In this document: positions 5,399-25,997 of the stretch, piece after piece
Layout: every line of letters starts with the position of its first letter
Position numbering within the stretch: the stretch's first letter is position 1
Source of the DNA: a virus
Taxonomy: Duplodnaviria > Heunggongvirae > Uroviricota > Caudoviricetes
Strand: one strand, 5' to 3'
DNA: 34,548 nucleotides
Virus record (IMG/VR): IMGVR_UViG_2563366980_000013
Notes under the pieces: generated by a model
The model's database searches: none
What the model saw: the letters and a program-made list of their open reading frames with translations, nothing else
Told to the model about the DNA's origin: nothing
Position numbers and translations under genes: made by a program

Positions 5399-6279
5399 AC
5401 ACTCCTCGTCAGTATTCTGGCGGCCATTGCACTTAATCCCGGAGACATGCGGTTGAATGCTGTGCCGGCGGCGTTAAGCTGCCCGGAAACGGTATCCAGA
5501 GCACCTGCAATATTTCTTTTGTCCACACCACTCAGCGCAGACTGTGCCTGCTGTACATACGTGGCTGCTTCGCTGGCTGTTCTGGCCAGACTGATGGCAT
5601 CGGGCATGGATTCAGAGAGTGCGTTAAACGCCGGAATACTTTTCCCCAGAGCGCCGGATATATTACCCAGTCCGCTCATCAGTCCCGGCACACGGGTCAG
5701 CGCGACAACGGGGTTACCCTTCATTTTCTGCGCCACCCGAACGGTACTGATGGTGGTCTGGAGTACAGACTGCGCCTGTTTCGCATAGTTGACGCCGTTA
5801 CGGACGAACTGCGCCACCCCGGAAGGCGATGGAACAGCACCAGATATGGCCCCGGCACCGGGAACCTGCCTGCGTATTGCCGGCGGTTGCAGAGGATTTT
5901 TCGGGTCACCGGTGTATTCCCGGAGAGACACGGTGGCACTGACAGCCAGCACGTTACCGGTGCTGTCTGTCTGCTCGCTGGTTGCGGTCACATCGGTAAT
6001 CACGAACCAGCCGCGATAGTCACCGTTGCCGAAGACCAGCGCCAGTGCCTGATGGGCCTTCATGGCTGTTCGCACTCTCGCCAGCTCCACGTCGGGCACA
6101 CAATAATGCTGATGGAGGACCAGGCTTATCTGGATTTCGTCCAGCCTGTCGCCGACGAACTGCAGGCCGGGTTTACCCTCGATGCGGGCATGCTCCGCAT
6201 AATCGACGCCAAACGTGGCCTCGAAGCCGTCCCAGTAGGTAATCAGTTCAAACTCAATATCACCCAGTACGGCAAACAT
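5395..6279 (-). CDS. Tail protein, gpU-like N-terminal domain / Mu N (DNA circulation)-like
   Basis: 294 aa immediately downstream of tape measure; N-terminal ~120 aa pattern resembles gpU-type tail proteins, followed by an Ala/Gly/Ser-rich C-terminal region. Confidence 0.5.
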   Translation of the reverse strand: MFAVLGDIEFELITYWDGFEATFGVDYAEHARIEGKPGLQFVGDRLDEIQISLVLHQHYCVPDVELARVRTAMKAHQALALVFGNGDYRGWFVITDVTATSEQTDSTGNVLAVSATVSLREYTGDPKNPLQPPAIRRQVPGAGAISGAVPSPSGVAQFVRNGVNYAKQAQSVLQTTISTVRVAQKMKGNPVVALTRVPGLMSGLGNISGALGKSIPAFNALSESMPDAISLARTASEAATYVQQAQSALSGVDKRNIAGALDTVSGQLNAAGTAFNRMSPGLSAMAARILTRSV

Positions 6280-9164
6280 CAGCTGTACTCCTTACGTTGT
6301 TTCTGAGCCAGCAGACGCTCCAGCATTTTTTCCAGCTCATGCAGGCTCATATTCAGGGCACCAGCCAGCCCGGCAGGCGCTGCGGTTTCCTTACCATTGA
6401 GGAAAAACTGAGGATTAAAGCTGACCTGGATACCACCAGACGTTCCACCGCCGGTTGCAGCTGCACCACGGCCTGAATATCCGGCAGCCATGATTTCAGG
6501 CGAGGGGATACGGGGAACATCCGGTGTCATCTCATTTGCCAGACGTTGCCCTGGTAAAATCGATGCCCGGGTGGAGAGCGGGATAGCGGGCATGGAAGAC
6601 AAACTATTGATTACGGCTCCGATCGCATTTTTAGCAGACGACATAAACCCGTTGATATCGGGCAACGGCATACTGAAGCGAACACCTGAAGTGTTATCCC
6701 GTATTTCTGGCCCCTGAATGCTCACGGGCATTTTGGGGAGCAGTTCACTGGCCATTCGCTGCCCGGCCAGAGCTGCAAGCGGAGTGGTCCGCTGCAGGCC
6801 AATGGCGGCCCCCTGCGCGATATTGTCACCAAAGCCCATAAACACGCGGCTCGGCGAATGAATACCCAGCTTTTCACTGAACCAGCCACTGATGCTGTCA
6901 CCCATTCCGGTTACACTGGATTTGAGCGACTCCCATTTGTTTTTGATACCGTTAATCAGACCGTCGACAAGATGGCCACCGAAGTCGGTGAACTTTGCCG
7001 GCAGATCAACACCAAGATATTTCAGCGCAGCTGCAAAGGCTTTATAGAGCAGACCTGCCGGCGACCAGTTAATCAGCAGCTTACCAGTTCCCGCGATACC
7101 GCCGTTAAAGGCTTCCTGAATGTCAGCCCAGCACTGTTTAAACCAGCTACTGATGCTGTCACCCATTCCGGTTACACTGGATTTGAGCGACCCCCATTTG
7201 TTTTTGATACCGTTAATCAGACCGTCGATAAGATGGCCACCGAAGTCGGTGAACTTTGCCGGCAGAGCAACGCCGAAATATTTCAGCGCAGCAGCAAAGG
7301 CTTTATAGAGCAGGCCTGCCGGCGACCAGTTAATCAGCAACTTACCAATTCCCACAATGCCGCCGTTAAAGGCTTCCTGAATGTCTGCCCAGCGCTGTTT
7401 AAACCAGCCACTGACTGCCCACCAGTTGCGGTAGATAAGGTAAGCTGCTGCCGCGACAGCGGTGATAACGAGACCGATGGGATTCATCATCAGCGCACGT
7501 CCAATCCAGAGAACAGCACGTCCGGCGAGCATAATTCCGCGAACCAGCCAGCGGAGCTTACCGCCTTGCCCCAGTGCGAGCGACAGACGAAGCCAGTTGG
7601 CCCGAAGTAAAACAGCATTTTTCCAGACACTTACAAAGGGGGAAATAAGGAGATTCAGCCCCAGTTTGAGACCAACAGTCGCTATCTTAATCGCAAGGAG
7701 CGCACTGATGAGCTTAAAAGCCCCACTGACAAATTGCGGGTGAGTCGCTACCCAGTGTTTTGCCCCCTGAATGAGTGGAAGCAGTTCCTGAGTCAGAGAA
7801 ATAAAAGATGGAGCTAATTGATCGCCCAGCGTAATTGCCAGATCGCGACTGCTGACCATAAGTGTTTTAGTGGCTTCAAGGGGAGATTTCAGCCGCTGAT
7901 CATAAGCACTGGCAAGCAAATCGTTATCCGCAGCCCTGAGAGCACCGGCACGGATCTCTCGATATCTGTCCATGTTGGCCAGCATCGGGCGGATAAATGC
8001 CATGACCTGCATATCCGCGAACATATCGCCCAGACCAAAGTTTTTCGCCAGAGCCTGAAGTGCCTCATCTCTTGCCGTATCATTCTTTATTTTCATGGCG
8101 GATTTGAAGCCGGCCAGCGCTTCGGGGCTTTTGGCATTGAGGTAACGTTCTATAACACTCAACATCCCTTCAATCGGAGAGATCCCCGCAGCTTTATAAC
8201 TCGCAATAGATCCCTGCAAATCAATACCCAGATCAGCAAACTGTTTCTGAGTATCGCGGGCAAAAATTTTGGTAAGAAAGTTTTTAAAATTATTGGCTGC
8301 TTCGTCGGTGGAACCTGCACCGATTTTTGCTATCTGGAGACTGGCCCCGATTTCAGCAACAGCCTCTTTTCCACTGGCAATACCCGCCATCATTGGGGCC
8401 AGGGACTGCATCCACTTGACCTGATCCGGGATTTCAAATGCCCCCTGGTCACCGGCATAAGCCATAATATTCTGAACGGCACCAAAATCTCTGGCCGCAC
8501 CTTTCAGGGAGTTTTGCCAGACTGCGGCCACTTTTGCCCAGTCCTGAGCAGACGTGCGTGTTGCCGTTGCCGCGCGGGCAATATCCGGCATCAGAAAACC
8601 GATATCTGACACATTATCAATATTGTCGCTGATGAGTGAACCCACCGCCTCCTGCAGCTCATCCTGATACTGATTGTATTTAAGCGCCCAGCCTTTTATC
8701 TGTCCGGCAAGTGCATCCCGCGTTTTATTGTCATATTTTGCGGTGATCGACATATCAATCATTTTGTCCTGAAAAGACATGGACTGCTGAACGGCAGGGG
8801 AAACCGTATGATAAACAGTCTGTGCCATGCCATACGCTTCAATCCCCTGACCATACAGCGCCATGCGGTTAGCTTTCAGCGCATCACTGGTAGCGGATGC
8901 CGCTGACAGACGGCGCTGCTGGCGCTCAATTTGCTCCATGGTGCGGCTTACCCGCAGCAGCTCGCTGTTGAGATGCTGCATCCGGGAAGAACCCAGTTGA
9001 CCATAACGTTCTGTTGCACGGGTTAAAGCGTTCTGACGTTCCTGCAGGCGGCGTGAGGTATCGCTCAGGGAATCAAGCGCACGGCGGGTACCGCTCATTG
9101 CAGAACGGAATGTGCTGCCAATCATCCCGCCGATAACAACGCCGACTGAAAACTGTCCCGACAT
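6279..9164 (-). CDS. Tail tape measure protein
   Basis: 961-aa ORF between tail chaperone and baseplate genes; hydrophobic central segment and internal in-frame tandem repeats. Confidence 0.85.
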   Translation of the reverse strand: MSGQFSVGVVIGGMIGSTFRSAMSGTRRALDSLSDTSRRLQERQNALTRATERYGQLGSSRMQHLNSELLRVSRTMEQIERQQRRLSAASATSDALKANRMALYGQGIEAYGMAQTVYHTVSPAVQQSMSFQDKMIDMSITAKYDNKTRDALAGQIKGWALKYNQYQDELQEAVGSLISDNIDNVSDIGFLMPDIARAATATRTSAQDWAKVAAVWQNSLKGAARDFGAVQNIMAYAGDQGAFEIPDQVKWMQSLAPMMAGIASGKEAVAEIGASLQIAKIGAGSTDEAANNFKNFLTKIFARDTQKQFADLGIDLQGSIASYKAAGISPIEGMLSVIERYLNAKSPEALAGFKSAMKIKNDTARDEALQALAKNFGLGDMFADMQVMAFIRPMLANMDRYREIRAGALRAADNDLLASAYDQRLKSPLEATKTLMVSSRDLAITLGDQLAPSFISLTQELLPLIQGAKHWVATHPQFVSGAFKLISALLAIKIATVGLKLGLNLLISPFVSVWKNAVLLRANWLRLSLALGQGGKLRWLVRGIMLAGRAVLWIGRALMMNPIGLVITAVAAAAYLIYRNWWAVSGWFKQRWADIQEAFNGGIVGIGKLLINWSPAGLLYKAFAAALKYFGVALPAKFTDFGGHLIDGLINGIKNKWGSLKSSVTGMGDSISSWFKQCWADIQEAFNGGIAGTGKLLINWSPAGLLYKAFAAALKYLGVDLPAKFTDFGGHLVDGLINGIKNKWESLKSSVTGMGDSISGWFSEKLGIHSPSRVFMGFGDNIAQGAAIGLQRTTPLAALAGQRMASELLPKMPVSIQGPEIRDNTSGVRFSMPLPDINGFMSSAKNAIGAVINSLSSMPAIPLSTRASILPGQRLANEMTPDVPRIPSPEIMAAGYSGRGAAATGGGTSGGIQVSFNPQFFLNGKETAAPAGLAGALNMSLHELEKMLERLLAQKQRKEYS
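6880..7401. repeat. Two tandem ~261-bp (87-codon) in-frame repeats inside the tape measure gene
   Basis: Protein repeats WFKQ(R/C)WADIQEAFNGGI..KSSVTGMGDSIS(S/G) occur twice in succession; DNA copies roughly 90% identical by eye. Boundaries approximate. Confidence 0.8.
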
Positions 9165-9239
9165 AGTGGTTAACCTCCGGGGAAGGTGAAAAGACGTGAG
9201 GGGATAACGCAGAACAGCCGCTACTGGCGGCTGTCTGTA

Positions 9240-9497
9240 CTATGATTTGTCGCCGTACTCGCTTTTTATTTGCTCTTCAGCCTGCTCCAGCCACATCTCC
9301 AGATCGTCAGTATCGAGGGCATCAATCTCCCCCGGCTGAAACCGGAACCATCTCGCCAGCAGCCCCTGCGCCTGCGTCAGCGCCCTGGTTGCTCTCACCC
9401 ATCCCCGTGATGAGCTGAAATCGTTTCTGTAACTGCAGGTAATCAGCCAGATCCATATTGTCGAGATCTTCCGGGAGAAGACCAGTACTGCGGGCAA
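9240..9497 (-). CDS. Frameshift-extension ORF of the tail assembly chaperone (E'/GT-like); probably not translated independently
   Basis: Open in the +1 (equivalently -2) frame relative to 9322..9657 and overlapping its 3' end; acidic tail (..DALDTDDLEMWLEQAEEQIKSEYGDKS). Confidence 0.45.
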   Translation of the reverse strand: MPAVLVFSRKISTIWIWLITCSYRNDFSSSRGWVRATRALTQAQGLLARWFRFQPGEIDALDTDDLEMWLEQAEEQIKSEYGDKS

Positions 9498-9657
9498 TCA
9501 GCGGTTCGTCCCAGTCTGCCGGGTTTTTGCTGATTTTGCGCACCTGCTTCAGGTCTTTTACCGTCAGGCGTTTCAGTTCAACCAGCTCAATTCTGGTACC
9601 TGCAGCAGTGGTGAAGGGATAAGACAATTTAAAAGTATCGGATGGGGTCTGTGACAT
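9322..9657 (-). CDS. Tail assembly chaperone (gpE/gpG-like)
   Basis: 111-aa ORF between tube and tape measure; Gly/Ala-rich C-terminus; 3' region overlapped by a second open frame. Confidence 0.6.
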   Translation of the reverse strand: MSQTPSDTFKLSYPFTTAAGTRIELVELKRLTVKDLKQVRKISKNPADWDEPLIARSTGLLPEDLDNMDLADYLQLQKRFQLITGMGESNQGADAGAGAAGEMVPVSAGGD

Positions 9658-9754
9658 GATTGTGCTCCTGTGTAAGTTCAGGGCAGTATGTCGGGAGAAG
9701 CGCGTGACGGATATTAAAGGAGATTAAGAAGAAGGGGCCGGAGCCCCTGTGATG

Positions 9755-10036
9755 TCAGCAAGTGCGAAACCCCTTGCAGTTACGCAGGAAAGCGATGAGA
9801 AGCGTCTTTCCCTCAGATTTGCCGGTGCCGGAGAACCAGTGGTCGGGAGGCTCCCATGCTTCAATCAAATCCGCCAGTTTGCGGGCCTTTGAACGTGTGC
9901 AGTCAATCGGGTCATTGGTTTTACGGGTATTAAAAAGGGTTTCCACCCCCGGAATATCAAGGAGGGTAAACCACGTACCATTTGACATGCCCAGTGCCGC
10001 ACATCGTCCTCCTTTATCCGTCAGTTCAACACTCAC
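9755..10036 (-). CDS. Hypothetical protein between tail tube and chaperone
   Basis: 93-aa ORF with GTG start 3 nt after the tube stop (or 77 aa from an internal ATG); same strand as the operon. No family recognised. Confidence 0.35.
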   Translation of the reverse strand: MSVELTDKGGRCAALGMSNGTWFTLLDIPGVETLFNTRKTNDPIDCTRSKARKLADLIEAWEPPDHWFSGTGKSEGKTLLIAFLRNCKGFRTC

Positions 10037-10038
10037 CG

Positions 10039-10560
10039 TCAGCCCCCGATATTGATCCGATAGTCAGTCAGTTGATCAACGCCACCGACGCGGAAGATGT
10101 TGGCCAGATAGTCCAGTTGCAGCAACTCTTCACCATCCAGTACCTGTCTGATATACGTGCAGGTGAAGCTACTGGAGAACTCGGCGTTCTCGTGCTGTTT
10201 AAACGTCCCCAGCGGGTTCTTCTTGAACATAATTGTCAGGAAGGTGACCAGCGGGATTTCGTCGATCAGCCCCTGCGAGCTGTAGCGCTGGACGCTGGAG
10301 CGACACTGCAGCGCCAGCGACTTGTACGGGTTCGCGGCAGACAGCATCGCATCGCGGTAAAAGCTGTTCCATTTGATTTCGCCTTCCAGTTTGTCAAAAC
10401 CAGCCGGGAGTTCCACCTTACCCACCATCCCCAGTGCCTTGTGTTCCTGCATAATCATGGAGACATCGGGGAGTTTAACTTCCTCAGCCCGTCCCAGCAG
10501 GTTAGTACCATCCAGATAGATGTTGGCATTCGTGATGCGGTTTATCTCAATCTTTGACAT
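10039..10560 (-). CDS. Tail tube protein (Mu M / P2 FII-like)
   Basis: 173-aa ORF directly downstream of the sheath gene; start overlaps the sheath stop. Confidence 0.75.
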   Translation of the reverse strand: MSKIEINRITNANIYLDGTNLLGRAEEVKLPDVSMIMQEHKALGMVGKVELPAGFDKLEGEIKWNSFYRDAMLSAANPYKSLALQCRSSVQRYSSQGLIDEIPLVTFLTIMFKKNPLGTFKQHENAEFSSSFTCTYIRQVLDGEELLQLDYLANIFRVGGVDQLTDYRINIGG

Positions 10561-11987
10561 CAGTTGCCCCCTTTCAGGGTTAACAGGTATTCCGAGGTGA
10601 TCTCAGTCTCAAACGTCAGTCGCTCCAGCGGCGGTGGTGGCGTATATTTGTAGCTCAGCAACAGGTGCCCGGCGGCCAGCTCCGTCTCCGGATTGCGGGC
10701 AGGATCAAACCAGCAACGGAAGCCCAGTACCGCACCATCACCAGTCATTTTGCGACCGTAGGCGTTGACCGACTCCGTCAGTGCATCAATCAGCGCCTGA
10801 GTAATCGGCATGTCGATGTACTGCTGGCTGAAATAACGAATGGACTCGTTGATCACATCACCGGTGCGGCGAACGTTCTCAAAGTTACGCATATGGGTGA
10901 CCGTTGGCCATGCTGCCGTCCGGTTACCCCACAGACGAAGGCCGCTGCCGTAACTGCTGAATACCGTGGTGATCCCCTGTTCGTTAAGCAGGTTCACCTC
11001 ACTCTGCGGGTCATCAATCATCGCGGACAGCTGGCGCTCCACGCCGGTGATCCCCAGAATCTCCTGATTGGAGGATGACCACCAGTAGCCCTTGTCCAGA
11101 TCGACTCTGGCACGCAGACCTGCTGCACGCTGGCTGAGCGGCTCCAGACGCTCTGTGTTTGTCACCGGGTCATATACCTTCACATGCGGATAGCACAGAC
11201 GGACGCGGTCGGAGCTGGTATTGAAGTTGATGGTGCCTTCCGGGCCACGACCTGCCAGAGCCTGTGCAAAGGTGGTACCGACAGGCGCATCAATGTAGGT
11301 TACCGCGCCCAGCTTCTCTGCCATGGCGATAAGCTCAACTGCGACACTCTTCTGGGTGCAGAACACCGGCGCAATCAGAATTTTGGCGAAATAGCCGTAC
11401 AGGTTGAAGCTGTCGTTAAGCAGCTTCATGCCGGTTCGGTTTCCGGCGCTGTTCACCCCGCCGATGATGTCCGCCGCAGTCACCTTCGACGGGTCCGCGT
11501 ACTCATAGCTCACCTTCACGCTGCCACCGGCCTCAATAGCCTTGCCCAGGTTCGTGAGCACACCCGCCTGCGCATCAACACGGTAGTCCGTGTTCGCCGT
11601 GTGGGAGGTGCTGCCTTCACTGTTTTTCACCACCACATTAGCGACAACCGGATGCGCCAGTCTGGCCTGCCCTGTCGATTTGTCAAAGGTAACCACCTCA
11701 TCCTCGATCGCCGTTTTATGTTTCGCCGGGTCGAGGACGTTAATGACCAGAACGGTACCTGCACCATGGTCATAAATCGCATCCAGCGCCTGCGGAATGG
11801 TAAAGCCGGTGAACTGGCTGCCAAATGCCGCTGCGTCTTTCTCAGACAGGCACTGTACCAGCGTATTGACATCCCCCATCGGGGCGGTACCAATCAGGCC
11901 AATAACGGCAGATTTCACCGTTTTAACCGGGCGGGCACCGTTTTCCACCTCAATGGTTTCGGGACCATGCAGATAGTTAGCTGCCAT
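10560..11987 (-). CDS. Tail sheath protein (Mu L / P2 FI-like)
   Basis: 475-aa ORF in the canonical position of the contractile tail module. Confidence 0.8.
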   Translation of the reverse strand: MAANYLHGPETIEVENGARPVKTVKSAVIGLIGTAPMGDVNTLVQCLSEKDAAAFGSQFTGFTIPQALDAIYDHGAGTVLVINVLDPAKHKTAIEDEVVTFDKSTGQARLAHPVVANVVVKNSEGSTSHTANTDYRVDAQAGVLTNLGKAIEAGGSVKVSYEYADPSKVTAADIIGGVNSAGNRTGMKLLNDSFNLYGYFAKILIAPVFCTQKSVAVELIAMAEKLGAVTYIDAPVGTTFAQALAGRGPEGTINFNTSSDRVRLCYPHVKVYDPVTNTERLEPLSQRAAGLRARVDLDKGYWWSSSNQEILGITGVERQLSAMIDDPQSEVNLLNEQGITTVFSSYGSGLRLWGNRTAAWPTVTHMRNFENVRRTGDVINESIRYFSQQYIDMPITQALIDALTESVNAYGRKMTGDGAVLGFRCWFDPARNPETELAAGHLLLSYKYTPPPPLERLTFETEITSEYLLTLKGGN

Positions 11988-24378: not shown

Positions 24379-24990
24379 TCAAAAATCTGGAGAAGGTATA
24401 TCTATCTGACCGACGTTTCGTAACCACATCTCTTGCTTTGTTTCTTTATTGGTTCGGGCGATATCATTAGCATTGTATCTGCATGTTTTAACCGCAACCT
24501 CACGAACTCGTGCTATAGGAGTATTTGTGTAGAATTTAAGATCTTCCTCTACCGCTCGTATGGCGATAAGCCCTCCACTCTGAAAACCGCTGGTTACTTT
24601 TAAAAGATCAACTCCTTGGTTATAAACGGCATTACATACGTTAGGGAACTCATCTTCTACAGTTTTGGGGATCATCAGCATATCAGGAAGACCCTGTAAC
24701 ACGTTATCTTCCTTTGGCCTCCATGCCCTTCCCAAAAAAGCTGTTATAGGTTGTGGTGTAGAAAGAAATGCCAATTCTATATAAAACAAACCACTGTAGT
24801 GATCGCGTAACGAATAGACTAGTAAATGATCTTTTCCAGTTTTACTTGCATTGCTAAGTTTTATATCAAATGGTTTTTTCTGGTACTTAAGCAATCCATC
24901 AACTCCCGCATAATAATGCTTTGAAACAGCAACAGAAAGTTGATGTACTTGGTTCGGATAATCTGTTCTATATCGTTTAATTAGCCCCAT
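24379..24990 (-). CDS. Hypothetical soluble protein, second gene of the repressor-linked cargo pair
   Basis: 203-aa ORF in clearly AT-rich DNA relative to the phage backbone; 20 nt downstream of the membrane-protein gene on the same strand. Confidence 0.6.
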   Translation of the reverse strand: MGLIKRYRTDYPNQVHQLSVAVSKHYYAGVDGLLKYQKKPFDIKLSNASKTGKDHLLVYSLRDHYSGLFYIELAFLSTPQPITAFLGRAWRPKEDNVLQGLPDMLMIPKTVEDEFPNVCNAVYNQGVDLLKVTSGFQSGGLIAIRAVEEDLKFYTNTPIARVREVAVKTCRYNANDIARTNKETKQEMWLRNVGQIDIPSPDF

Positions 24991-25010
24991 AATAGCCTCG
25001 CAGTTATTTT

Positions 25011-25997
25011 CTATTTCAAAATATAACGATATTTACTATCTGGAGTGTTTTGTTGGTCAAGTAATAGAGCTCTACATGGGGCGGTCAAAACACGGGCATA
25101 ACGACCATCGGGGTTTATGTTGATGTAACAAGTTTTCCCTTTAACACCATAAGATTCAGGTATTATTGCCTGTGTAGACACCGTGAATTTAAGGGTATGC
25201 CAGCCCGATTTTTGCTTGTAGCTTGAAACCGAATGGAAATCATCTGAGTACTTATTTAACCCTGGAAACATGCTGCGTAATGCTGGGATGGAATCTTCTA
25301 TTATTTTGTCGTTGGTTTTAATGTTAAAAACGCTGGTTTCAGTAGATGCTACTGCTTTAGCATTTCCCCATTTACCAGCGAACACAATCATTCCCACGAA
25401 AAATATTGCGACAAGAACTAACGCTCCCCCCAACACTACTACATGAGGCTTCCGGCTTCTGGTTGGTACAGTCGCGACTGATTTTGCCCCGCTGTCCGAT
25501 GGAGGTGATAGAGTTTTACTCTCATCACGAATATTCAGCAGATCATCAAAATAACCAAACACAGCCTGCAACTGCTCTTTGTCCAGGCCTTTAAGATGGG
25601 TTGTACCGAAATGCTTCAGACAGTATCTGTCACGGTCAAGACGATACCTAGGGTCAGTAAGCACCATTATTTTGCTGACCAGAAGATTACAGTCCTTCAT
25701 ATTCTGGATCTGTTGTGCATATCTCTGGAGGATCTCAACCGCACCATGATAATCAGCCGCAGTCATTTCATTAACTGTTTTGGTATTAAGTTTCGTGTGG
25801 ATCGTCATCCATAGTTCGCGCTTACTTTCCCCCAGATCAACCAATTCATCCATCAATCTGTGTAAATCGCGTTTTTGCAGCAACGAAATTGGTTGCTGGG
25901 CAGAGGGAAGTATGTCAGCAGAATAGTTATGAATGGTAACATCACCGCTGACAACGTTACCCACATCTCCGTTAACTGTTTGCTTCTCTTTACTCAT
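25011..25997 (-). CDS. Hypothetical single-pass membrane protein, first gene of the repressor-linked cargo pair
   Basis: 328 aa; N-terminal ~185-aa soluble domain, one TM helix (HVVVLGGALVLVAIFFVGMIVFAG), C-terminal ~115-aa domain; start overlaps the repressor stop (ATGA); AT-rich. Confidence 0.6.
   Translation of the reverse strand: MSKEKQTVNGDVGNVVSGDVTIHNYSADILPSAQQPISLLQKRDLHRLMDELVDLGESKRELWMTIHTKLNTKTVNEMTAADYHGAVEILQRYAQQIQNMKDCNLLVSKIMVLTDPRYRLDRDRYCLKHFGTTHLKGLDKEQLQAVFGYFDDLLNIRDESKTLSPPSDSGAKSVATVPTRSRKPHVVVLGGALVLVAIFFVGMIVFAGKWGNAKAVASTETSVFNIKTNDKIIEDSIPALRSMFPGLNKYSDDFHSVSSYKQKSGWHTLKFTVSTQAIIPESYGVKGKTCYININPDGRYARVLTAPCRALLLDQQNTPDSKYRYILK

Follow-up and report, generated by a model that had tools for sequence, protein, structure and literature searches.

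How a tailed phage expresses two proteins from overlapping frames is the question raised by a tail assembly chaperone gene in IMG/VR virus record IMGVR_UViG_2563366980_000013 (Caudoviricetes), which we analyzed as a stretch of 34,548 nucleotides (nt), hereafter, the window. The chaperone open reading frame (ORF) lies on the minus strand (9322..9657; ATG start) and encodes a 111-amino acid (aa) protein, the analogue of phage P2 gpE. It is overlapped across 9322..9497 by a second minus-strand open frame (9240..9497; 85 codons from a mechanically assigned TTG start) that is offset by 160 nt and, therefore, is in the +1 (equivalently, -2) frame rather than in the classical -1 frame. An earlier note on this sequence had drawn attention to the overlap and to a run of five G residues shortly 5' of the chaperone stop codon, and had proposed that ribosomes change frame on this run to append an acidic extension of ~28 aa. 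The ORF coordinates, the G5 run and the frame geometry given in that note all stand upon inspection of the ORF list and the sequence, and the identity of the chaperone is confirmed by a match to PF10109 (Phage_TAC_7, 'E, or 41 or 14'; residues 8-81, E=5.5e-21, 74.8 bits compared to a cut-off of 25) and by its assignment to phrog_166. As shown below, comparison of homologous loci indicates that ribosomes very likely undergo a programmed shift to the +1 frame in this gene, and that this shift probably occurs by +1 slippage at CGA_UUU_C (9423..9417, minus strand), ~90 bases upstream of the G-run, yielding a predicted 138-aa product (80 + 58 aa) analogous to E+E' of P2.

The first point to settle is whether the second frame encodes a protein at all. 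Alternative-frame ORFs of 85 to 290 aa are numerous in the same 8 kb of the window, so that 85 codons, taken alone, are within the range of chance, and the overlap might be an accidentally open frame with no second product. The overlap is considered real because it is conserved in homologs, and not because of the length of the ORF. We gathered 119 homologous loci from genomes and viral contigs, 14 loci from Burkholderia and 80 more distant ones, along with annotated phages. The enteric set comprised 123 loci (91 unique), and pairwise counts of synonymous and nonsynonymous changes were made on 83 unique enteric sequences; the Burkholderia set used for the shift motif included 16 loci and the further +1-type loci numbered 73. 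About 190 loci with the second ORF in the +1 frame were examined. Every enteric homolog retains the +1-frame pattern ...W....K.L.QAQGLLARWFRFQP[GS]EIDALD.DDLEMWL.QAEEQIK.E.GD* (asterisk, stop), and from gene nt ~278 on, nearly all changes in +1-frame codons are synonymous. For example, the fractions of synonymous and nonsynonymous change in this frame are, respectively, 0.42 and 0.00 at the Arg codon at nt 305, 0.44 and 0.02 at the Phe codon at nt 311, 0.69 and 0.02 at the Arg codon at nt 314, and 0.26 and 0.00 at the Pro codon at nt 323; the codon tables contain mixtures of CGG, AGA, AGG and CGC for Arg, of TTT and TTC for Phe, and of CCN codons for Pro. A swap of CGG to AGA at the +1-frame Arg converts the 0-frame Pro codon into a stop. 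Retention of the second frame in homologs, the test to which the earlier note had submitted its own proposal, is thus observed in ~190 loci, which come from several bacterial orders; the changes are synonymous only, and the product is homologous to P2 E' (see below). These conservation data contradict the interpretation of the overlap as a chance open frame, to which we assign next to no weight.

The 0 frame, by comparison, contains little synonymous signal past nt ~255 (about codon 85) and essentially none past nt ~295. The last ~30 residues of the 111-aa chaperone form a poorly conserved, Gly/Ala-rich tail that overlies the +1-frame coding sequence, and the 0-frame C termini differ in both sequence and length (GEVV*, ..SAGGD*, ..SVSAE*, ..SAG*, GESN*). 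Among the enteric loci, the 0-frame stop is located 11, 25, 27, 29, 30 or 32 codons past the UUU codon that is discussed below, whereas the +1 product is steady at ~59 codons; across all relatives, the 0-frame stop ranges from 7 to 36 codons past Phe80. Given this variable length and the lack of selection in frame 0, the tail (..GADAGAGAAGEMVPVSAGGD) looks like a by-product of the underlying +1-frame coding. In one locus (L061) and another identical to it, both 98% identical to the window, a CAG to TAG change truncates the 0 frame (...GMGESN*) 11 codons past UUU_C, and the +1 frame is intact; provided that these prophages are functional, such a stop is compatible with a shift upstream of it.

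The +1-frame product is related to the E' part of the P2 fusion protein. The region from Phe80 to the TAG stop codon at 9242..9240 (9240..9419, minus strand) encodes 58 aa past this residue, SSSRGWVRATRALTQAQGLLARWFRFQPGEIDALDTDDLEMWLEQAEEQIKSEYGDKS, that match phrog_8286 (E=7.9e-34). When the two frames were joined after Phe80 into a 138-aa model for profile search, PF10109 was matched by residues 8-82 and PF06528 (Phage_P2_GpE) by residues 100-132 (9261..9359, minus strand; LARWFRFQPGEIDALDTDDLEMWLEQAEEQIKS), with a sub-threshold score of 18.4 bits (E=0.0015; profile positions 4-36 of 37); the corresponding domains of P2 E+E' span residues 7-85 and 104-139. PF06528 was also matched at E<=0.01 by 12 of the 21 aligned family members. 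Over all of its 58 aa, the extension can be aligned with the post-shift E' regions of P2, Wolbachia phage WO, Pasteurella phage AFS-2018a and Vibrio phage Valp1, and is 46% identical to that of AFS-2018a over 35 residues. Two motifs are common to this extension, to E' of P2, a -1 product that is established by experiment, and to the E' parts of other -1-type relatives, namely, PK.L at ~10 residues past the junction and [FW]xPSE[IL]..L...[DE][LF]..W. A search of the NCBIfam profiles with the fusion model yielded no match, and a sequence search of PDB detected no relative. The conserved extension is about twice as long as the ~28 aa suggested in the earlier note; its +1-frame peptides include ALTQAQGLLAR and FQPGEIDALDTDDLEMWLEQAEEQIK.

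A conserved +1 ORF could also be an independent small gene that is expressed from its own start codon, for example, GTG at 9398..9396, without any frameshift, to give a 46-52-aa 'GpE family phage tail protein'. Such ORFs are called by PGAP under this name in a few E. coli genomes (WP_112013525.1, WP_001202894.1), and phrog_8286 is the PHROGs family of these ORF calls; gp42 of BcepMu has an ATG, and separate small ORFs are annotated in phiE255, Komp_PAO1_1, Valp1 and WO. Nevertheless, across the homologs, no ATG, GTG or TTG is conserved in the +1 frame. At the position of the GTG of the window, the relatives have GCA, CTG, ATC, CTA, TTA or GTA, with ATG found only in L033, L041 and L043, and at the next candidate start, they have ACG, ATT, TGG or CGT; furthermore, conserved +1-frame residues (W, PK.L) precede every candidate start, and in Komp_PAO1_1, the only available starts would drop the conserved LLLVL segment. 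The homologous E' of P2 is made only as a fusion, via a mapped -1 shift (PMC3091744), and an independent gene leaves unexplained the frozen synonymous sites at CGA_UUU that are described below. We consider independent expression of the +1 ORF unlikely. A frameshift pair is characterized by a second ORF that extends over the 3' portion of the first in another frame, is conserved as a protein and lacks a conserved start codon of its own, and this arrangement is what we find here.

If the chaperone and the extension are joined by a shift, the next question is where. The G5 run (9329..9333, minus strand; gene nt 325-329) lies in the 3' end of the chaperone ORF (...TCA GCC GGG GGA GAT TGA, where the part from GCC to TGA spans 9336..9322). 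Under the original proposal, a Mu-like -2 (or +1) slip on GCC_GGG_GGA (9336..9328) would add the last 28 acidic residues, EIDALDTDDLEMWLEQAEEQIKSEYGDKS, to give a protein of ~137-138 aa. The run and the frame geometry do exist, a GGG codon in the P site is intrinsically shift-prone, and a -2 shift on a G5 run, CGG_GGG_CGA, has been verified in phage Mu (PMC5009743). The comparison of the homologs, which the earlier note had recommended, upholds the overlap and the second frame but not the G-run. In the +1 frame, the run reads CCG GGG GAG (Pro-Gly-Glu) and is located inside the E'-like domain, and the purifying selection on this frame, assessed over the ~190 loci, begins at least 50 nt further upstream, so that with a shift at the run, the strongly selected segment LLARWFRFQP would stay untranslated. 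The run is present in 54 of the 91 unique enteric homologs, and the 0 frame is open through it in only 24; in the other 67, it is either absent or beyond the 0-frame stop, including 37 loci in which the 0 frame ends at GEVV*, 5 codons upstream of the run. At the corresponding position, BcepMu has CCG TCC GAG, the Burkholderia and Pseudomonas relatives have this sequence or CCG AGT GAG, and CCG AGT GAG also occurs in some of the enteric loci; phiE255, Komp_PAO1_1 and Bise lack the G-run as well. Because the run sits within the +1-translated stretch and is not conserved, it cannot be the conserved shift site. We regard a shift of this kind as highly improbable, although some adventitious shifting at the G-run in the lineage of the window itself is possible. 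A Mu-type -2 shift is not supported by the protein family either: the chaperone of the window belongs to PF10109 and does not match PF23746, the family of the Mu protein.

Several public assemblies contain 138-aa in-frame 'fused' proteins (P0007, P0009, P0023, P0060), in which the frame changes at the G5 run (...SAGEIDAL...) or further upstream. From the protein sequences, these appear to reflect 1-nt differences in homopolymer length, as sequencing artefacts or sporadic mutants, rather than evidence of recoding, and they show that the overlap is prone to indel miscalls.

The slippery sequence that is conserved within the overlap is UUU_C. In the window, CGA_UUU_C, which is located at the end of the PF10109 domain, comprises the codons for Arg79 and Phe80 plus the initial C of the Gln81 codon and contains the sole in-frame TTT_C of the chaperone gene; among the 139 Arg codons of the adjacent genes, 7 are CGA. 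UUU_C is present in all 123 enteric loci, all 16 Burkholderia loci and 72 of the 73 further +1-type loci, the single exception being UUU_U (in the context ACG_UUU_UAC). An in-frame UUU followed by a pyrimidine (UUU_Y) is the only slippery motif common to the relatives from Escherichia, Salmonella, Burkholderia and Pseudomonas, in which the flanking nucleotides differ: CGA_UUU_CAR in enteric bacteria, UCC, GCC or UCU followed by UUU_CGY in Burkholderia, GUG_UUU_CGG and GCR_UUU_CAA in Pseudomonas, and AAA_UUU_CAG and UUU_UUU_CGG in other loci.

The conservation of this motif is strict at the level of nucleotides. Among the enteric sequences, the Phe80 codon is TTT in 83 of 83 and the Arg79 codon is CGA in 79 of 81, whereas other conserved positions in the same gene mix their codons: Phe9 is encoded by TTT in 58 sequences and by TTC in 12, Phe15 by TTT in 18 and by TTC in 50, Arg30 by CGC, CGT, CGG or CGA, and Arg56 by CGC in 49 and by CGT in 29. 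In the structural genes of BcepMu, UUU makes up only 17 of the 105 Phe codons (16%), and yet it is kept in 16 of the 16 Burkholderia loci. Thus, an in-frame UUU with a following pyrimidine and a frozen synonymous position, the hallmark of a UUU_Y-type +1 site, is found at this locus.

The placement of the shift is bounded by stop codons in the relatives. On the upstream side, the +1 frame contains stops 3 codons before Phe80 (L007, the Komp_PAO1_1 type and L220), and on the downstream side, the 0 frame contains stops 7-9 codons past Phe80 (L166, L224, Bise and L227); within these bounds, in-frame UUU plus pyrimidine is the only motif that allows tRNA re-pairing. One could still envisage that the shift occurs elsewhere, or at a site specific to some lineages, between UUU_C and gene nt ~278, for example, as a +1 slip on GCA_GGG_G (9366..9363) in the lineage of the window. 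In the window, this stretch contains no stop codon in either frame, the selection analysis cannot resolve sites within it, and GGG_G permits perfect +1 re-pairing. However, this tetramer is not conserved, the Gly codon varying synonymously among GGG, GGA, GGC and GGT with variable +1 codons after it, so that GCA_GGG_G was rejected as the +1 site; moreover, the relatives with a 0-frame stop 7-11 codons past UUU exclude all downstream sites in those lineages, and there is no other re-pairing tetramer in the permitted interval. A shift elsewhere between UUU_C and nt ~278 is, accordingly, quite improbable.

Other types of slippage fit the UUU_C site less well. A P2-type -1 shift does not fit because E' is in the +1 frame and no X_XXY_YYZ heptamer occurs within the permitted interval. 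Transcriptional slippage is unlikely, the run consisting of only three T residues in all loci but one (L166, with seven). A -2 shift at this site is disfavoured because the codon that it would bring into register, GAU, offers no re-pairing option.

Several observations weigh against a +1 shift at UUU_C or limit the precision with which it can be placed. The fine placement rests on stop codons from different lineages and assumes positional conservation of the site, and between UUU_C and gene nt ~278, the changes in both frames are mostly nonsynonymous, so that the selection analysis alone places the shift no finer than within ~40 nt. Phe80 itself is conserved and the next residue is Gln, Arg, His or Tyr, all with pyrimidine-initial codons; hence the conservation of UUU_Y is, in part, conservation of the protein. 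The A-site codons are CAG, CAA, CGC and CGG, of which CAG, CAA and CGC are not rare, and the sole unusual codon at the site is CGA in the E site, in enteric bacteria alone. An RNAalifold consensus of 19 diverse sequences revealed no conserved RNA structure downstream of UUU_C (-4 kcal/mol, 0 compensatory pairs; for the sequence of the window alone, z=-1.9), and inspection of the aligned sequences by eye revealed no conserved Shine-Dalgarno-like stimulator upstream, the sequence GAGGUG directly before UUU being present only in Komp_PAO1_1. With no conserved structure, the efficiency of the shift would have to depend on the tetranucleotide and its context alone. Compared to the PF06528 gathering score of 23 bits, the extension in the window reaches only 18.4, the +1 ORF is treated by PGAP and by several phage annotators as a small gene in its own right, and the fusion protein in this group of phages is a prediction from sequence.

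The lack of conserved stimulators would nonetheless fit a shift of low efficiency, such as that of Mu, for which ~2.2% has been reported. In the scheme that we favour, most ribosomes would read through in the 0 frame and produce the 111-aa chaperone. In a small fraction, with tRNA-Phe paired to UUU (Phe80, 9420..9418) in the P site, the ribosome would slip by one nucleotide to UUC (9419..9417), where the next codon is AGC, and would then translate 58 codons of the +1 frame before reaching the TAG at 9242..9240. The predicted product, M1...K78-R79-F80 followed by SSSRGWVRATRALTQAQGLLARWFRFQPGEIDALDTDDLEMWLEQAEEQIKSEYGDKS, would join the PF10109 domain to the E'-like domain of PF06528. In the enteric loci, the E site holds a near-invariant, rare CGA that may modulate or help the shift. 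If the lambda (G/GT) and P2 (E/E+E') pairs are a guide, both products would coat the tape measure protein, the presumed binding partner of the chaperone domain, and the rare fusion would recruit tube subunits through its E' domain, for which the tail tube protein is the presumed partner, as for lambda gpT; neither product is expected in the virion.

The proposed mechanism has precedents. UUU_Ynn sequences have been described as particularly liable to +1 shifting in bacteria, with no need for a stop codon, and the Yersinia YopN-TyeA fusion probably arises at such a sequence (PMC5009743). Influenza PA-X is made by a +1 shift at UUU_C (PMC3498833), and an E. coli cell-free screen lists TTT_C among the efficient +1 tetramers (bioRxiv 10.1101/2025.10.02.679949). 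In all these cases, tRNA-Phe, which reads UUU by wobble, would re-pair in the +1 frame with UUC, its cognate codon, and the E. coli UUU_Ynn sites, YopN-TyeA and PA-X (UCC_UUU_CGU) share with the window the tetranucleotide, the predicted mechanism, low efficiency and the lack of a strong RNA structure. The genes and the biology differ, and so does the context, PA-X having a rare codon in the A site, whereas the locus in the window has a common A-site codon and, in enteric bacteria only, the unusual CGA in the E site.

The closest counterpart of the chaperone pair is gpE/gpE+E' of P2, which occupies the same slot, between the tube gene FII and the tape measure gene T, has the same PF10109 domain, and also contains PF06528, the domain that is below threshold in the window. 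The sizes of the fusions are similar (142 aa in P2, 138 aa predicted for the window), and the P2 shift site, too, is at the end of PF10109, with Phe80 of the window located 3 residues upstream of the P2 slip codons in the protein alignment. The direction of the shift differs: in P2, E/E+E' are produced by a -1 shift at TTTTTTG (PMC3091744), a tandem U_UUU_UUG heptamer in the FETUD operon, whereas in the window, E' is in the +1 frame and the motif is UUU_C. The 0-frame tail past the shift site consists of 31 residues in the window, compared to 6 in P2. Other relatives with the same two domains are also of the -1 type, with GGU_UUU_UUG in P2 and WO, G_GGU_UUU in Valp1 and A_AAG_GGA in Pasteurella phage AFS-2018a. 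In Mu, a transposable myovirus, gp41/gp41-42 have the same functional slot and a second frame that is likewise +1/-2, but gp41 belongs to PF23746 and shifts by -2 on CGG_GGG_CGA near the 0-frame stop, in contrast to the family studied here, in which the G-run is unconserved and lies inside the E' domain. Lambda, a siphovirus as opposed to the myovirus prophage of the window, has a chaperone pair of unrelated protein families made by a -1 shift. The slippery sequence of lambda is G_GGA_AAG. The lambda products gpG and gpGT, which have a common N terminus, are the paradigm for such systems: their ratio is low and fixed, the tape measure is bound by the chaperone, and the tail tube protein by the T part (PMC5009743).

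In BcepMu (AY539836), gp41 is homologous to the chaperone of the window and gp42 to the +1 ORF. The BcepMu record predicts slippage elsewhere, between gp42 and gp43, the latter described as an 'alternative gene42 C-terminus produced by ribosomal slippage' (24977..25363 in AY539836; L004 4978..5364); gp43 overlaps a region that is annotated in phiE255 as a minus-strand gene for a membrane protein (gp17). This frameshift assignment is probably wrong, and a BcepMu-style gp42/gp43 slippage was rejected for the window, where the gp43 region is absent and the corresponding gene of phiE255 is on the reverse strand. In none of the annotated records examined is a slippage that joins the chaperone to the GpE-like ORF marked; most list only a 'phage tail assembly protein', and a few, a stray 'GpE family' ORF. 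In the literature searched, we found no description of a +1 site for BcepMu-like chaperones, although an earlier mention in Xu et al. 2004 or Christie et al. 2002 is possible.

That tailed phages make a chaperone along with a frameshift-extended form of it is well known; new here would be a specific candidate +1 site, CGA_UUU_C, for a clade in which the frameshift is unannotated or misassigned. More broadly, it appears, on balance, that in a large clade of P2/BcepMu-type tail modules of Escherichia, Salmonella, other Enterobacterales, Burkholderia and Pseudomonas, E+E' is produced through programmed +1 slippage that occurs naturally on a bare UUU_Y tetranucleotide, whereas their sisters, in P2, WO and the Vibrio and Pasteurella phages, use -1 heptamers ~3 codons away. 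If so, this would be a clean evolutionary switch of the direction of frameshifting within one protein family, with a bearing on the evolution of recoding signals, and a rare natural case of UUU_Y +1 shifting in bacteria, without a stop codon or RNA structure; in a chaperone system, an efficiency of a few percent suffices. In practical terms, the annotation would be corrected for a prophage present in 637 of the 5426 complete E. coli genomes (~12%), and annotators of the PF10109 family would have a simple rule, to seek UUU_Y at the end of the domain. The main use of the result is as such a rule, with some interest for specialists in recoding and phage assembly.

The genomic context is in accord with a frameshift pair. 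The chaperone gene lies between a P2 FII-type tail tube gene (10039..10560, minus strand; PF04985, E=2.1e-53) and the gene for a 961-aa tape measure protein (6279..9164, minus strand; PF10145, E=1.9e-20), flanks that bear out the suggestion of the earlier note that the gene occupies the slot from which tailed phages express their frameshifted fusion. The sheath gene (10560..11987) is upstream of the tube gene, and a 93-aa ORF (9755..10036, minus strand; phrog_1239, E=4.6e-48) is inserted between the tube and chaperone genes, for an overall order of sheath, tube, 93-aa ORF, chaperone and tape measure; the E' stop and the tape measure start are just 75 nt apart. The DNA of this region matches that of Escherichia phage PhiKM (genus Bcepmuvirus) at 99% identity and that of Klebsiella phage KP12 at ~82%. 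The locus is best explained as an E/E+E' (lambda G/GT-type) chaperone pair, in a BcepMu-like myovirus prophage whose tail module is of the P2 type.

One of the loci collected (L005; NZ_PJIO01000028.1, an 8.2-kb contig labelled 'Arthrobacter sp. GMC3' and also present in IMG/VR, as L059) is 99% identical to the E. coli prophage region. Its occurrence under an actinobacterial genome looks like assembly contamination rather than an indication of host range.

Some additional features of this region were noticed. PhiKM and KP12 also have the 93-aa ORF, for which P2 and BcepMu lack a counterpart; its match to DUF7739 is weak and sub-threshold. Between this ORF and the chaperone gene, there is a terminator-like GC-rich hairpin (9733..9748, minus strand) followed by TCTTCTTAAT, which could lower the expression of the chaperone and tape measure relative to that of the sheath and tube. 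Another hairpin (9210..9237, minus strand; ACAGACAGCCGC-CAGUA-GCGGCUGUUCUG; -18.1 kcal/mol, z=-4.5) is located directly 3' of the E' stop, ~45 nt before the tape measure start; KP12 keeps the stem, with a different loop. Because no T-run follows it, this hairpin is not a typical terminator, and it may be an element of mRNA stability or attenuation. Finally, the tape measure gene contains a 261-nt (87-aa) tandem duplication (6880..7414, minus strand; two copies, 93% identity), at a site where the PhiKM record has a sequencing gap; since the length of the tape measure sets the length of the tail, the lineage of the window may have a longer tail.

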